From Thermodesulfobacteriota bacterium (lineage in GTDB: Bacteria > Desulfobacterota_D > UBA1144 > Nemesobacterales > UBA2774), in NCBI GenBank assembly GCA_963422265.1, contig OY729416.1:1719596-1783595 (forward strand): a DNA stretch of 64,000 nt. Reading direction: 5' to 3'. The position numbers were made by a program. Positions 1 to 48,000 of this stretch are shown in pieces; the stretch's first letter is position 1, and the number at the start of each line of letters is the position of its first letter.

Positions 1-3000
1 ATTGGGAATCCAGAAGGAGAAAAGGGGAACGAGAGTCCCTTCCTCACATAATCCCCCATAACGCCTTTATCGCAGACAAAAAGACCAAAAGCAGATAAAC
101 TTTCAACTAACATGAAGGAAGCGCGCTCTTTTCAAAATCTGCTTAAAGACAAGATTTACACTGTTTCAGAAATCACAGCCAGGATAAAGGAGACCCTAGA
201 AAATAAAATTGGATTCGAGCAAGTGTGGGTCGCGGGAGAGATCTCAAATTTCAGGGGCAATTACTCAAGTGGACACTGGTATTTCTCGTTAAAGGACTCA
301 GGGGCTCAGATATCAGCGGTATGCTTCAAATGGGCTAATCAGTACATAAAGTTCACGCCCGAAAACGGTATGGAAGCTATATGCTACGGTCGGCTGAGCG
401 TTTATGAAAAGCAGGGATCATATCAATTAAACGTCAGGCACATAGAGCCTAAAGGAGTAGGTGCTCAGGCGATTGCTCTTGAGCAGTTAAAAGAGAAACT
501 CCAAGCAGAGGGATTATTTGACAAGGCGAGAAAGAGACCTCTTCCCTATCTTCCGCGTAAGATCGGCGTCGTAACCTCCCCTACGGGCGCGGCTATCAGA
601 GACATTCTAAAGGTATTAGATAGGCGATTTCCAAACTTGCGGATATTGATCTCACCCACGAGGGTTCAGGGCGGCGAAGCAGCGAAAGACATCGTAACCG
701 CCATTAACAGGCTATATAAAATACAAGGGGTTGATTTAATCATTCTGGCGAGGGGCGGGGGTTCTAAAGAGGACCTTTGGTGCTTTAACGACGAGGCTCT
801 TGCGCGGGAAATAGTAAAATCCCCTGTCCCTATAATCTCTGCAGTAGGGCATGAGATTGATGTTACAATAGCGGACATTGTAGCCGATGCGCGCGCCGCA
901 ACTCCTTCTATGGCGGCGGAGATAGCCGTTAAGGAAAAGGACGAGCTAATGCGAGAACTGACAGAGCTAAGAGCCAAGATGGCAGGCGCTCTTAAAAATC
1001 GGATTGAACTTCTCGCCAGGGAAATAGATCAAATCCAATCCGAGTTAGTCTCCCACGTTAAGGCAAGGATTGAAGCTGCCAACGCCGAATTGGGCAGGCT
1101 CTCGGGAAAGCTTGACGCCCTGAGCCCGCTCAAGGTGCTTGACAGGGGTTACAGCATCACCTACAAACTCCCCTCAATGAAAGTAGTTAGAGAATCCAGC
1201 CAGCTAGAAAAAGGGGATGAAGTCCTTATCAGCTTTAGCAAAGGCAGAGCGATTTGCTTGGTTAAAGAGACGGAGAATTAGGAGACGAGGCTATTAAGCT
1301 CTTGCGCAACGTAGAACTCAATACCCGCGCCCCTGAAAACCTTTTGAACTTGCTCTGACGGGGGGTGATCCGTGAATACGTATTTCGCCCTGCCTCCGAC
1401 GTCCTTTTTGAGTTTTTTCTTAGGCGACTGCCCATTTAAGCCCAACTGCACTCTTTCATAGATTCTTTCTATTCCTTCCCTAGTTTCAAATATGATAGAC
1501 GGTTTAACTTCTAGTATATCTCTATAGAAATCCTTTCTTGACTCAGTCGTGCACGCCATACTACCCTTGTATAGAGTGAGGTAATTGATTAGAGTCGAAA
1601 ACGGACTTATGGAAGGCATGTATGAAAAAGCCTGATCTTCGGTAGTTATGGATAGAGGCGCTTGACAGATGCTGTCTAGTGCTTTAATTACATCGCCTTG
1701 CGACGCCCTTTTGATCCCGTTACGCATCGGAAAGACGAGGGCAGTCAAAGAGGCGTTCAGATTTTTCGGTATCTCCATCAACTCGTCCAGGATTTTCCTT
1801 TTTCTCATCATCCCATATTTCAGCACAGTCTGAAAATTCGTTATCCTCTCGTTTTTTACCCTCTCATTGTGAAAAAAGATTACCTTCTCTACCATAGGCA
1901 GATTATCTAGCGAGCGGATGAATAGACCTGATGCATCCCACCCCCTGTTCTCATGGGGACGGGCAAGAGCGGGCAGGGATTCTCGCCCAACAAATACGAA
2001 CTTAGCCTCTAAACGATTTGCCATCTCTACAATTTCCTCAACCATGTCTCTATCTCTGAACGGTAGGGGGCTACCGCCACCGCATAGTGGGACGATGATT
2101 CCACCTAGATGATAAACAGCTATCTCCGTTGAAATAGCCTCGAGCCTATTTGCCGATGCTATGATTACCGTATCACCTCTTGCCAGACCGAGATCCATAA
2201 GATACGCGGCTATATTTTTGACCTGTCCATCAAAGTCTAGCCAAGTGATTTGTTTCCAACTCCAGCCATCTCTACGTTGAAACAGCAGCTTTGCGCCGTG
2301 CTCTTTCACGCGGTTCTCAATCAACCCTGGTATAGTATTTGCAGGCATGTAGAATCCTCGGTGTTTTAGTTCAAACGCCTTATCATGCTTAGAGATAACA
2401 ACTCGCAGCGTCTTGAACGTGCGCTGCCCTGAACGTATTGAAGGGTTGAACAGTGGCTTTACCCATCTTCATCTAAGCGGGGAAGGATAGCTACTACAAA
2501 AGGGGTTGGCAACTACAGTTCAGGACAGCGCTAGGGTCCCTCCCCTACAGGTAAACAAGAAAATCCACCCTATCCCTCCTTTACAAAAGGAGGGGAATAT
2601 CTCCTTCTCCCCCTTTAGAAAAGGGGGATACAGGGGGATTTGATAGGGCATCGGGGAACGAACCCCTTCCTTATTCCCCATCTCCCTACTTAAATACACA
2701 CAGGGAGATGCTTCCGCAGGAATGACGGACAGTGGTATGAATTCTCACCCCTCCCATCATTATTGTAGGGGTAACCCTTGTGGTTGCCCTTTTCTTTGCC
2801 TTTATAAAAGGAGGGGAATATCTTCTCTAACTCCTGAACCTGTAGAAGGGCAAAGCACAACTGAGAAACCTAGTCTTTTCCCCCTCTCCCCCTGGAAGAG
2901 GGACACAGGGTGAGGGTGTTTTCATCATTCCTGCCCCCGAGCGGGAATACAGTAAGAGGGGTGGGGAACGAAAACATTCCTCATATACTCCCCCTTTAGA

Positions 3001-45000: not shown

Positions 45001-48000
45001 CTCGCCCGAAGGCGTGAAGGTGATAGGTAAACACAAGGGTTACACCTACGAAATGATGGTGTAGGTGATGTGGGAGTATAAGGGATGATTGATCTTCCCT
45101 GATGTTCTATCAAATCCCCCTATATCCCCCTTTTCTAAAGGGGGATTATGTGAGGAAGAAGTCACCCTTCCCCAATACCCTCTCTGGATTCCCAGTTCCC
45201 CGCTCAAAAGCATGTTCCTGCATATATTAAGCAGGAAACTACGGGGGCAGGAATGACGGATGGATCATAGTTCAGGGTTGCATTTGATTCTTCGTTACGC
45301 TACATTTACAATCCTTGTTATGAGAAAACATCGTCCTTTTTCTTACTTATCTCAATTAGTCCACAGACTCCGTTCACTAACTACCTTAGCTATTGTTTTT
45401 ATAGTTTTGTTTTTCTTCCCTTTCTTCTGCGTGCCTGTGGTGCCAGTAGCGCAATCGGAGGAAGGGCAACCCCCACGCGTTCGATGGGTGGAGATTGGTT
45501 CTGATTCTATAAAGGAGTTGCCCAAGAAGGGGCGGGACGCTAACGACAATCCTAAGGTGGATGATAGTCTGGAAGAGGTGATAGAATCACTTTCGGATAG
45601 GGTCGTCAGTGAGTCGGAGGCTAAGGGAGAGGGAAGCGCCAGAGAATCAGAAGCGGAAGGTGTTCTAAATCCTGTGGATTTATCCACTTCCTTTGTTAAG
45701 GTGGACAGTTCGTCAAGGATTCAGGTGTATGTTTATTGCAATGAAATTAGCGAGGGCAACCTAAAGAAGTTATCTGAACTGGGTTTTGAGAAAGAAATTA
45801 TTGACGAAGAGTATAGGATTATTCAAGGGTGGATTCCTTATGACAAGATAGAGCAAGTGGCTAAGCTAGACTTCGTGAAAGAGATAACCCCTCCAAGTTA
45901 TGGGACTACGAACGCAGGCAGTGTTACTACCAATGGGGACGAGTTCTTAGGGGCGAAGGATGTGAGGAGGGATCTTAGGGTTGACGGGAAGGGGGTTAAG
46001 ATAGGGGTCATCTCTGACGGCGTTCGGACTTTAAGAGACTCTAAGCGGAGCGGTGATTTACCTAATGAAGTTGAAATAGGTTATGTTGAGAATTGCCGGA
46101 ATGCACAAACAAGTTGTAACGAAGGCACAGCGATGCTTGAAATAGTGCACGACATAGCACCTGGGGCTCAGCTTGGTTTTTACTATGGTTTTACCACAGT
46201 GGCCTTTAAGGAGGGGGTGGATTACTTTCGTAAGAATCGCTACGACATAATAGTTGATGACATATTGTTCTTCCTCGAGCCTTATTTTGAGGATGGACCC
46301 GTGGCGAGAAAGGCAAAGCAGGCGGTGGACGAGGGGATCATATTCGTTTCTGCGGCGGGTAATATGGCGAAGAGGCACTATCAAGCTCCTTATAATCATG
46401 CCAATGGATACCATGATTTCGACTCAGGGGCGAGCGGTACAGATGTGCATTTAAGCATAGATTTTAAAAGTGGTACTAGATGCAAATTGTATGTTCAGGC
46501 TATAGATTCTGCTGGTAAAATTTCTTCCGAAAAATTAGAGATAACGAGAGAAGAGAATTTTATACACATTCACGGTGAAGGCAAGAATTTAAAGGAGATT
46601 GAGATTCTTGTTAGTAAAGGCTGTGAACTTGAGGGGAAGTATGCCACTCCGGGAGACTCAATAGTCGGACATGCGGCGGTGCCGGGGGTGATAGCCGTGG
46701 GCGCCGTGGATGAGAATAGAAAGGTGAGAGATTACAGTTCAAGGGGACCCTCGTCCATCATTAATGGGCAGGGGGGGGTTGAAAGGCGTCCTAAGCCTGA
46801 CGTGATGGCTCTTGATGGGGTTGAAACTAGCGCGAAGGGTTTCGAATCTTTTAAGGGTACGTCGGCTGCCGCGCCTCACGTAGCGGGCATAGTGGCTCTT
46901 ATGATACAGGGTTATAACAGGCGTGCGAAGGAAGCGGGGATAGAAGAGGTGGATAAGTTAGAGCGGGCAAAGCAGATAACCGACATCCTAAAGTGCACGG
47001 CGGGTTCAGGTAATTGTAAGGGACATAACAATACGTATGGTTACGGCATAGTGAATGCGCAGCGCGGGTCGGTTCAGCAAGCTATCTCTGCGGGGGAAAG
47101 TGCTAAGGCAGCACCGCCGCCAGTGACGGATGGTGGTAGCGGTGGTGGTGGGTGCTCACTTTGGGGCGAGGCTAAAAACGCGCAAAGCGGTATTATAGAT
47201 ATTCTAATGACGTTTGCGCCGCTCTTTATTCTAATACTGATTTGTTTTATACGTAGGGGTGGTGCTAGGCGATGTCCTGAGCGTGCCGAAGGGTGGTCTC
47301 GCCCTAAGGCGTGAAGGCGAGGGTAACCACAAGGGGATTACCCCTACGAAATGATGGTGTGGGTGATGTGGGAGTATAAGGGATGATTGATCTTCCCTGA
47401 TGTTCTATCAAATCCCCCTGTATCCCCCTTTTCTAAAGGGGGAGAAGAAGAAATTTCCCTCCTTTTGTAAAGGAGGGTTAGGGTGGATTTTCTTTTTGTT
47501 TGTAGGGGCGACCCTTGTAGTCGCCCTAAGGCGTGAAGGCGAGGGTAACCACAAGGGGATTACCCCTACGAAATGATGGTGTGGGTGATGTGGGAGTATA
47601 AGGGAGGATTGATCTTCCCTGATGTTCTATCAAATCCCCCTGTATCCCCCTTTTCTAAAGGGGGAGAAGAAGAAATTTCCCTCCTTTTGTAAAGGAGGGT
47701 TAGGGTGGATTTTCTTTTTGTTTGTAGGGGCGACCCTTGTGGTCGCCCTAAGAGTTGACAAAACCAAAGAAAATTGGTAATTTGGAAGAGAGTAATATAT
47801 CCAAGTCGTTAAAAGTTGCACGTGAGGGTTAGCATGGAAGTCCAAGTAGCTACCAAATCTTATATAGAACGTTTGGATAAAGATATTGCGGCTGTCCGCG
47901 CGGACGTTAAAGAGCTTGCTAAGGGGCAGATTGAAATAAGGGAGGGTTTAGCAGAAATAAAGGGTATGCTGAGTTTTGCTAAACCAGTAATGATGGCAAT

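Follow-up and report, generated by a model that had tools for sequence, protein, structure and literature searches.

A cysteine-containing C-terminal tag and its putative CPBP protease in Nemesobacterales and Thermodesulfovibrionia, a probable new subfamily of the Cys-CTERM/myxosortase systems

Introduction

The closest described systems are the Cys-CTERM tags and the CPBP proteases paired with them: MYXO-CTERM with the myxosortases MrtX, MrtC and MrtP, JDVT-CTERM with MrtJ, and Synerg-CTERM with MrtS. MYXO-CTERM has no proline in its helix and often a second cysteine, and JDVT-CTERM carries Asp-Pro nine residues past its cysteine (Haft, Fig. 1 legend). True members of MYXO-CTERM can score low, and such tags need lineage-specific models (Haft). 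MrtX suffices to cut TraA in E. coli, and an mrtX mutant still delivers some uncleaved clients to the surface (Guo et al.). The enzyme that modifies the cysteine of the MYXO-CTERM system is unknown, the model of that system predicting an 'Lgt-like' step (Haft; Guo et al.).

The window analysed here is a stretch of 64,000 nucleotides (contig positions 1,719,596 to 1,783,595) from a genome of Candidatus Dadabacteria, order Nemesobacterales (hereafter G000); positions preceded by C1 count along the contig, all others along the window. In the literature outside subscription journals we found no paper that joins Dadabacteria with CTERM, or an Lgt paralog with MYXO-CTERM, and the tag is absent from the titles and abstract openings of the papers listed for myxosortase, Nemesobacterales, Thermodesulfovibrio CTERM and JDVT-CTERM.

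Results

Tagged proteins of G000

G000 contains ten proteins with a Cys-containing tail, five inside the window (span 1-47314) and five outside. Within the window, the secreted product of g01605 (9806-10849, minus strand) includes a short linker of collagen type, and its tag (about 9809-9937, cysteine at residue 313) scores 54 bits on a profile built without G000 rows; an ESM Atlas search with this protein gave no usable match. Three fn3-type genes lie on the plus strand: g01606 (11416-12069; tag 11863-11997), g01610 (15660-16268; signal peptide and fn3 domain; tag 16104-16238) and its paralog g01612 (16799-17557; 10-residue repeat linker; tag 17393-17527). The gene g01606 may be decaying: at 11416 it has ATC instead of the ATG of its paralogs, its first GTG is at 11536, and its end enters a 70-bp repeat. 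The fifth gene, g01640 (45260-47314, plus strand), encodes a subtilisin (PF00082) with a tag at 47129-47272, which of all G000 tails is nearest to the Thermodesulfovibrionia form described below (29 bits on the Thermodesulfovibrionia profile). Outside the window, three tagged genes lie at C1:1714866-1715771, 1717421-1718467 and 1718542-1719339, and g00037 and g00038 at C1:38384-42343 and 42787-45879. An eleventh copy of the tag, at C1:344101-344349, is a remnant without a start in which Phe replaces the cysteine.

All ten tails listed in the survey's finding were thus recovered. The proteins fall into three unrelated families (four of collagen type, five fn3 paralogs and one subtilisin) and therefore do not represent ten independent cases; g01597 has only the signal region in common with the other collagen-type members. 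Judged by hydropathy only, nine of the ten have an N-terminal hydrophobic signal stretch; g01606 gains one only if translation starts at ATC 11416.

Organization of the tag

From N- to C-terminus the tag runs from Gly-Cys through a linker and a membrane helix to basic residues; in the ten G000 tails 30-59 residues separate the cysteine from the stop. Cysteine, glycine, proline and arginine had been put forward as invariant; across 43 aligned tails this is true of the cysteine alone. The helix proline occurs in 34 of the 43, 18-28 residues past the cysteine, and in at least 90% of the 30 A5 tails, and is missing from 9 of the 12 tails of family f8. Cysteine and helix are separated by a spacer of about 10-16 residues, and in the fn3-type tails a weak basic patch is followed by nine further residues. 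Overall, the tails are tripartite, with an invariant cysteine, a helix and a basic cluster near the C-terminus, and in G000 proteins of three unrelated families, most with a signal stretch, carry them; the matches number up to 58 in one genome.

As a chance control, a profile built from the tails of 38 relatives, with no G000 row, was run against all 27,447 six-frame stretches of G000. The four collagen-type tails scored 47-56 bits and the subtilisin tail 20, the reversed-frame maximum being 12. The three short fn3 tails reached 15-17 bits, beside two noise matches (Cys-less or non-terminal) at 15.5 and 14.6, and g00037 and g00038 fell outside the top 16. The family profile thus fits the fn3-type tails of G000 weakly, and the latter two proteins are counted as tagged because of their paralogy with the fn3 tails.

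No curated CTERM model explains the tag, since none of 85 tails (45 + 40) attains a cut-off. The best values are 19.9, 19.8 and 19.0 bits on MYXO-CTERM (TIGR03901; cut-off 20), 24.7 on JDVT-CTERM (NF033191; cut-off 27) and 16 on Synerg-CTERM (TIGR04564; cut-off 22.5); a TIGR03901 scan of six G000 tails listed no match. The earlier statement that the tag fits no curated model is thus formally correct; as an argument for novelty it carries little weight, in view of these near misses and of the need for lineage-specific models (Haft). The aligned tails show no GCGC motif, and none was seen with Asp-Pro at Cys+9.

The protease g01229

The gene g01229 (C1:1328472-1329089, minus strand) lies directly upstream of nadE and encodes the single CPBP protease of G000, in which, as one contig of 99.4% completeness, no exosortase, rhomboid or sortase was detected. 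This agrees with the survey's finding and extends it to sortase. The protein scores 66.5 bits on PF02517 (cut-off 22.4), and it has the motifs and the helical membrane fold of a CPBP glutamic intramembrane protease: 20 orthologs share EExxxR, H, HxxxN and TFFPS without exception, the predicted structure has a pLDDT of 92, and SpdC and MmRce1, both CPBP structures, head the fold matches (E >0.001).

By sequence, g01229 is nearest to the myxosortases among CPBP proteases. Its best protease-model matches are MrtP and Mrt_core, all below cut-off, with 67.1 bits on Mrt_core (NF040914; cut-off 100). On this model all 13 orthologs tested score 56.3-76.7 bits and all eight paralogs at most 33.1. Neither g01229 nor these orthologs attain any curated Mrt cut-off (Mrt_core 100; MrtX, MrtC and MrtP 180, 195 and 250; MrtJ 75; MrtS 130), the orthologs scoring 33.5-45.5 bits on MrtJ and 51-67 on MrtS. 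An FFP motif is found in 20/20 orthologs, 22/24 Mrt_core members and 7/7 MrtP, and in 0/8 paralogs; this segment before the last helix pair corresponds to the MrtX segment picked by SIMBAL analysis (Haft). In a profile search, 49 of the 126 sequences scanned among the 150 best distant matches were at or above the Mrt_core cut-off. A tree from a quick search places the protease clade (SH-aLRT 88) apart from the sequences passing Mrt_core and MrtP; this tree contains no named MrtX, MrtJ or MrtS rows, and it mingles five long-branch paralogs with the myxosortases, so that the deep placement of the clade is provisional.

Co-occurrence of tag and protease

Among 120 genomes of the class, 83 have both tag and protease, 28 neither, seven the tag only and two the protease only. 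Eight of these nine mismatches can be traced to assembly breaks or to the threshold, G090 (tag only, 59% complete) being the one outside this check. In the six other tag-only genomes, four have a contig end at the expected gene site and two also lack nadE; in both protease-only genomes the tags are sub-threshold or truncated by a contig end. G023, reported earlier as an exception with a tag and no protease, reflects a contig break. In genus g26, each of the 35 genomes with a CPBP protease has exactly one, the g01229 ortholog, and neither a CPBP protease nor a tag is present in family f6 (6/6 genomes) and G020. In two tagless lineages (G020 and G026) the place where the protease gene normally lies shows a clean loss; the genomes are kin and not independent, and the order yields about two secure independent co-losses. 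A single 'tag' in G117 (family f9) was rejected as a 32-residue frame without cysteine, as were weak matches in G018 and G030 lacking the Cys motif.

A sister system in Thermodesulfovibrionia

The tag is present in Nemesobacterales, as had been stated, and is not confined to them, for Thermodesulfovibrionia (Nitrospirota) carry the system as well, with a sister clade of the protease. Of 60 loci, 37 have a tagged gene at most 400 bases from the sister protease gene; these show three arrangements and involve two unrelated client families, and in five loci the protease gene has tagged genes on both sides. Counted irrespective of completeness, 151 Thermodesulfovibrionia genomes comprise 24 with tag and protease, 123 with neither and 2 + 2 mismatches (tag in 24 of 26 protease carriers), a count that is partly circular because the profile was built from protease-adjacent tails; in 8 of the 24 double carriers the tag is on another contig or more than 10 kb away. 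The tag match of G216, counted as tag-only, contains a stop and is probably false. A match at 98.5% links tag profiles A2 and A5, and several sister-clade proteases have MrtS as their best model, with up to 80 of 130 bits among the A4 members. No lipid-transfer gene was recognised beside the protease in the 60 Nitrospirota-type loci, as judged from their 14 most frequent neighbour families, part of them Pfam-scanned.

From gene context, the Thermodesulfovibrionia protease is a predicted dedicated enzyme beside one to three clients, mostly lipoprotein subtilisins, and that of Dadabacteria a predicted housekeeping enzyme beside nadE with one to at least 58 clients. A single-copy CPBP protease thus co-occurs with the tag or adjoins it. 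That g01229 is the partner of the tag, proposed earlier by elimination, is now better founded: the wider co-occurrence, the clean losses at the site, the myxosortase-specific scores and motif, and the adjacency of the sister protease in a second phylum make the pairing stronger than elimination alone.

A second Lgt

G000 has two Lgt genes, Lgt1 (C1:772985-773770, plus strand), which adjoins lnt, and a second, order-specific Lgt2 (C1:1348567-1349319, minus strand). The latter passes the Pfam cut-off of PF01790 (156.9 bits) and stays below that of TIGR00544 (93.7 bits; cut-off 118.9). In 12 Lgt2 sequences the residues matching E. coli R143, G154 and R239 are invariant, and all 12 carry Leu, Phe or Val at the position of H103, immediately preceded by a two-residue deletion; according to PMC13251419, Y, W or F sometimes takes the place of H103, and about 1,300 genomes carry lgt twice.

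It is possible, if doubtful, that Lgt2, with its altered arm-2/H103 region, is a dedicated enzyme lipidating the tag cysteine in Nemesobacterales before the protease cut. Of the 92 tagged genomes of the order 88 have at least two Lgt, as against 2 of the 9 untagged ones, and in G020, G026 and G063 the site before trkA shows a clean loss of Lgt2. G020 (2.0 Mb, 99% complete) has lost tag, protease and Lgt2 and kept the type II secretion operon, which is also kept in G063, so that loss of secretion was rejected as the cause; since small g26 genomes retain both Lgts, genome size does not explain the loss of Lgt2 either. We nevertheless somewhat favour the reading that Lgt2 is unrelated to the tag, being a surplus or inactive copy that some lineages have lost, with the housekeeping Lgt (or nothing) modifying the cysteine. 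Lacking Lgt2, G063 still has the protease and one intact tag, and G018 (80% complete) and G030 (74%) have Lgt2 without tag or protease; the substitutions at H103, the frequency of double lgt given in that source and the unaided cleavage of TraA by MrtX in E. coli (Guo et al.) point the same way. In Thermodesulfovibrionia two Lgt matches occur in 4 of 26 protease carriers and 18 of 125 other genomes, which gives no support to a universal dedicated Lgt. If Lgt2 were the dedicated enzyme, lineages with one to three clients would rely on the housekeeping Lgt, the 'Lgt-like' step would have its first named candidate, and Lgt2, protease and client would make up a C-terminal mirror of lipoprotein biogenesis that consists of three genes and could be reconstituted.

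Discussion

We consider it very likely that tag and protease form a fifth Cys-CTERM/myxosortase cognate pair, common to Ca. Dadabacteria (Nemesobacterales) and Thermodesulfovibrionia, and g01229 most likely cuts the tails, anchoring the proteins at the cell surface, as far as sequences can tell. The proteins would be exported by way of their presumed N-terminal signal, and the tail helix would keep them in the inner membrane with the basic end inside; on the model of MYXO-CTERM and Rce1, the invariant cysteine would then be lipidated. By analogy with MrtX, the g01229-type glutamic intramembrane protease would cut past the cysteine and the helix would be removed, and type II secretion (gspC-K operon, C1:1446652-1456181, minus strand) would carry the lipid-anchored protein to the surface, as in Myxococcus.

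The same mechanism could operate without a new family, the tag being a divergent MYXO-CTERM (or JDVT-CTERM) and g01229 an ordinary outlying myxosortase. The near-miss tail scores, the MYXO-like, Pro-less f8 tails, the best matches of g01229 to MrtP and Mrt_core and the low-scoring true members (Haft) speak for this; the usual helix proline, the lack of GCGC and +9 Asp-Pro, the separate clade in the quick tree and the MrtJ scores of 34-46 of 75 make it unlikely on balance, if still of some weight. We regard it as quite improbable that the tail is an uncleaved membrane anchor and that the protease has another job on the same surface proteins, since the invariant cysteine, the intact catalytic motifs, the joint loss and the five loci with the protease gene between tagged genes would be left unexplained, even if processing of the tails is deduced, the mrtX mutant delivers some uncleaved clients to the surface (Guo et al.) and the fn3-type tails have nine extra residues behind a weak basic patch. 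Processing by an exosortase, rhomboid or sortase is hardly credible: an exosortase-family gene does occur in 29 of the 32 other genomes of G000's family, but G000 itself, the genome searched for rhomboid and sortase, has none of the three, and all 37 genomes of f8 are tagged and lack exosortase, so that such enzymes are largely refuted by phylogenetic profiles.

With the fifth pair, the Cys-CTERM class gains two more phyla, including Thermodesulfovibrio genomes, and one enzyme lineage displays both known modes, many-client housekeeping and dedicated client-adjacent. The tag moreover allows the surface proteins of Dadabacteria to be called, tagged proteins that reach a number of at least 58 in a genome and that no NCBIfam model marks, and Lgt2 makes the question of the Cys-modifying enzyme directly testable.

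Comparison with known systems

As only the cysteine is invariant and some tails lie 0.1 bit under the MYXO-CTERM cut-off, the tag and its predicted protease probably belong to the published Cys-CTERM/myxosortase systems as a new subfamily and are not a new kind. With MYXO-CTERM and MrtX, MrtC and MrtP (NF040593, NF040594, NF040674; core NF040914) they share the tripartite tail with invariant cysteine, many clients per genome served by one single-copy CPBP protease distant from them, the FFP segment, the presence of type II secretion and an occasional internal tag via gene fusion. The new tag differs from MYXO-CTERM, with its missing helix proline and frequent second cysteine, by a single cysteine, a usual helix proline (9 of 12 f8 tails being Pro-less) and its occurrence in other phyla, and the protease differs from these enzymes by its length of about 200 residues, scores below all cut-offs and a separate clade in the quick tree. 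JDVT-CTERM and MrtJ (NF033192) are alike in the single cysteine behind a Gly run and, in Thermodesulfovibrionia, in few clients, a patchy distribution and a protease gene adjoining a client gene; the 27 bits of JDVT-CTERM, its Asp-Pro at Cys+9 and the 75 bits of MrtJ are all lacking, and the new lineage doubles as a putative housekeeping sortase in Dadabacteria. Synerg-CTERM and MrtS (NF040589) resemble the new pair in the single cysteine, the proline within a Leu-rich helix and the link to type II secretion, whereas Synerg-CTERM is shorter and without the spacer between cysteine and helix, and neither its 22.5 bits nor the 130 bits of MrtS are reached. Finally, Rce1 (MmRce1; PF02517; PDB 4CAD) has the same fold and EExxxR, H and HxxxN catalytic motifs, but the presumed substrate of the new enzyme is a membrane-spanning tail, whose cysteine would be lipidated by analogy, and not a CAAX end.

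Tagged proteins and their tails

Analysis of the closed 1.78-Mb genome of G000, whose terminal 64 kb form the window, retrieved all ten tagged tails reported by the survey, five of them inside the window; homologs of the window proteins are labelled Thermodesulfobacteriota or Ca. Dadabacteria, the class under which NCBI places Ca. Nemesobacterales. The tagged proteins comprise four collagen-type proteins, five fn3 paralogs and one subtilisin, three families whose mutual similarity is confined to the tail. With a profile built from 38 relatives' tails, excluding the G000 rows, five of the ten tails score 20-56 bits, clearly above the noise level of reversed frames (12 bits), three fn3 tails are marginal (15-17 bits), and those of g00037 and g00038 are not recovered. 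The proposed invariance of G, P and R alongside Cys has to be narrowed: across 43 aligned tails Cys is the only invariant residue, the helix Pro being present in 34 and missing from 9 of the 12 tails of family f8. G000 also carries a 3' remnant of the g00037/g00038 type (C1:344101-344349), which lacks a start and in which Phe replaces the tag Cys.

The window contains a family of ~70-bp repeats with a palindromic core, which either form tandem arrays, the largest with 16.5 copies, or lie within longer units of 170-230 bp (12054-12302, 17585-18747, 32181-32660, 47299-47752, 53519-54025, 57936-59473 and 63230-64000); several arrays sit directly 3' of tagged genes. Around the subtilisin gene lie three paralogous lipoprotein-like genes (43414-43884, 48266-49138 and 49434-50114), whose N-terminal signal region weakly matches the NF058595 'lipo-invert' anchoring domain (21 of 37 bits).

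The probable cognate protease

G000 encodes one CPBP protease, g01229, and no exosortase or rhomboid was found in it, as stated previously, nor any sortase. An exosortase-family gene absent from G000 was recovered by a class-wide survey in 29 of the 32 other genomes of its family; a second, separate C-terminal sorting system has apparently been lost from G000.

The top scores of g01229 are those on the myxosortase models MrtP (71.6) and Mrt_core (67.1), both below cut-off. On Mrt_core, 13 orthologs reach 56-77 bits versus at most 33 in eight same-class paralogs. Neither the catalytic motifs nor TFFPS vary among 20 orthologs, and the FFP motif sets orthologs and myxosortases apart from paralogs. 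The 150 best matches of the ortholog profile were scanned except for 24, most of them short or incomplete; of these 126, 49 exceed the Mrt_core cut-off and 7 that of MrtP. A quick tree (103 rows, SH-aLRT supports), in which long branches blur the deep order, unites the 20 orthologs in one clade (88), separate from the proteins above the Mrt cut-offs; its sister clade of 25 members (support 100) includes Thermodesulfovibrionales. The predicted structure of g01229 (pLDDT 92) best matches SpdC and MmRce1, but with E above 0.001. A CPBP paralog from family f1 (G080, L108:956-1594) attains 92 of 200 bits on the archaeomyxosortase model MrtA.

In a class sample of 120 genomes, with a tag threshold of E 0.001, the ortholog occurs in 85 and the tag in 90; 83 genomes have both, 28 have neither, 7 have the tag alone and 2 the protease alone. 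These counts are not independent since the genomes are kin. At most of the loci read, the protease gene immediately precedes nadE. Six of the seven tag-only genomes were examined: four have a contig end at the protease site and two are without nadE too; the seventh is 59% complete. Both protease-only genomes do carry tags, which either miss the threshold or are truncated by a contig end. G020 (99% complete) and G026 (98%, one contig), neither of which has the tag, lack the protease gene, and its usual neighbours directly adjoin each other there. Secure independent co-losses of tag and protease within the order are those of family f6 and of G020; family f9 (19 genomes) has neither. The co-occurrence, the clean gene loss in G020 and G026 and the Mrt_core scores support the assignment of g01229 as the sorting enzyme of the tag.

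The protease gene of G019, a genome with at least 58 tags, lies away from nadE, directly upstream of a tagged subtilisin (L093, 5058-8451). In some genomes the protease gene adjoins gtrA and genes for a GT2 glycosyltransferase and a PMT-family mannosyltransferase (L095:4861-8719 in G017, L096:5227-8750 in G016, L099 in G007; C1:1329138-1329758 in G000), which hints at glycosylation of Ser/Thr-rich clients. An 881-aa protein of G049 (L125:1481-4123) bears the tag twice, once internally and once at its end, together with a second signal-like stretch; this apparent tandem fusion resembles the internal MYXO-CTERM case reported by Guo et al. (PMC11980579).

A sister system in Thermodesulfovibrionia

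The tag is not confined to Nemesobacterales, the order in which it was noted. A GTDB scan with the sister-clade protease matched 556 loci, and the first 60 of the best 80 were analysed. Nearly all of these come from Nitrospirota of the Thermodesulfovibrionia type, one of them from a Thermodesulfovibrio yellowstonii MAG. Within this part of the best 80 of 556, 37 of the 60 loci have a tagged gene less than 400 bases from the protease gene (upstream 25, downstream convergent 10, downstream in line 7, with both sides occupied in 5 loci), and a subtilisin query matched 39 of 44 tagged genes, the remainder including Ig-domain proteins. In L158 the gene order is client, protease, gspC, gspD. Such adjacency is the type of evidence used by Haft for JDVT-CTERM and its protease MrtJ (bioRxiv 10.1101/2023.06.07.544157). 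The tag profiles of the order and of Thermodesulfovibrionia match one another at 98.5%.

Among 151 sampled Thermodesulfovibrionia genomes, after 12 weaker protease matches had been assigned to other CPBPs, 26 have the ortholog, 26 the tag and 24 both, a count that is partly circular because the tag profile was made from protease-adjacent tails; in 8 of these 24 a tag lies on another contig or more than 10 kb from the protease. An N-terminal lipobox-like motif is found on 34 of 40 Thermodesulfovibrionia clients with an uncut 5' end, and the scanned subtilisins possess a prodomain; we infer that the C-terminal anchor retains the mature subtilisin after the prodomain and its lipid are removed. 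A further family (L139:7196-7972 and homologs) lies near the client-protease pair in 12 of the 60 Nitrospirota-type loci (from the best 80 of 556) and weakly matches T2SS protein N (E 0.039, below cut-off).

Proposed mechanism and a second Lgt

The tail anatomy, the intact catalytic motifs, the presence of a gspC-K operon in G000 and, by genomics, the cognate protease are established. By analogy with MYXO-CTERM, a tagged protein would be exported by Sec, its Cys would be lipidated and its tail cleaved after this residue; type II secretion would then transport the protein, which would be anchored at the cell surface.

G000 has two Lgt genes, one adjoining lnt and the other, Lgt2, preceding trkA. 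The clade to which Lgt2 belongs is specific to the order (support 99); its members show a two-residue deletion, carry Leu, Phe or Val at the H103-equivalent site and retain the equivalents of R143, G154 and R239 (residue roles from PMC13251419). At least two Lgt matches are present in 88 of 92 tagged versus 2 of 9 untagged order genomes (n=101), and the Lgt2 gene is cleanly gone from G020, which retains type II secretion, G026 and G063. These sequence patterns could point to a dedicated role of Lgt2 with the tag, which we consider rather doubtful: in Thermodesulfovibrionia there is no association (4 of 26 vs. 18 of 125), G063 has the protease and one tag without Lgt2, the incomplete G018 and G030 have Lgt2 but no tags, and MrtX, according to Guo et al. 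(PMC11980579), cleaves unaided in E. coli. The sole secretin of G026 lies near pilM (L123:8782-11701). The six f6 genomes have one short secretin each; besides tag, protease and Lgt2, this family has therefore apparently lost GspD.

Relation to known CTERM systems

Taken together, the tag and g01229 very probably constitute a real, well supported myxosortase-type sorting system. No NCBIfam cut-off is reached by any of 45 order tails or of the 40 Nitrospirota-type tails scored (44 found); the claim that the tag fits no curated CTERM model stands in this sense, but by narrow margins, the best near misses being 19.9 of 20 bits for MYXO-CTERM and 24.7 of 27 bits for JDVT-CTERM. CTERM tags require lineage-specific models, and four Cys-bearing tags have been defined, each paired with a cognate CPBP protease (Haft, bioRxiv 10.1101/2023.06.07.544157). 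Guo et al. (PMC11980579) demonstrated that cleavage by MrtX depends on the Cys, in E. coli too, and predicted an Lgt-like enzyme, not yet identified, that acts on this residue. Given these four pairs and MrtX cleavage, the kind of system is already published; no description of the present pair was found in the literature searched, with subscription journals outside its coverage, and what is added here is the neighbourhood evidence from two phyla and the Lgt2 lead. The tag system falls outside the MYXO-, JDVT- and Synerg-CTERM models, yet very probably works like those systems.
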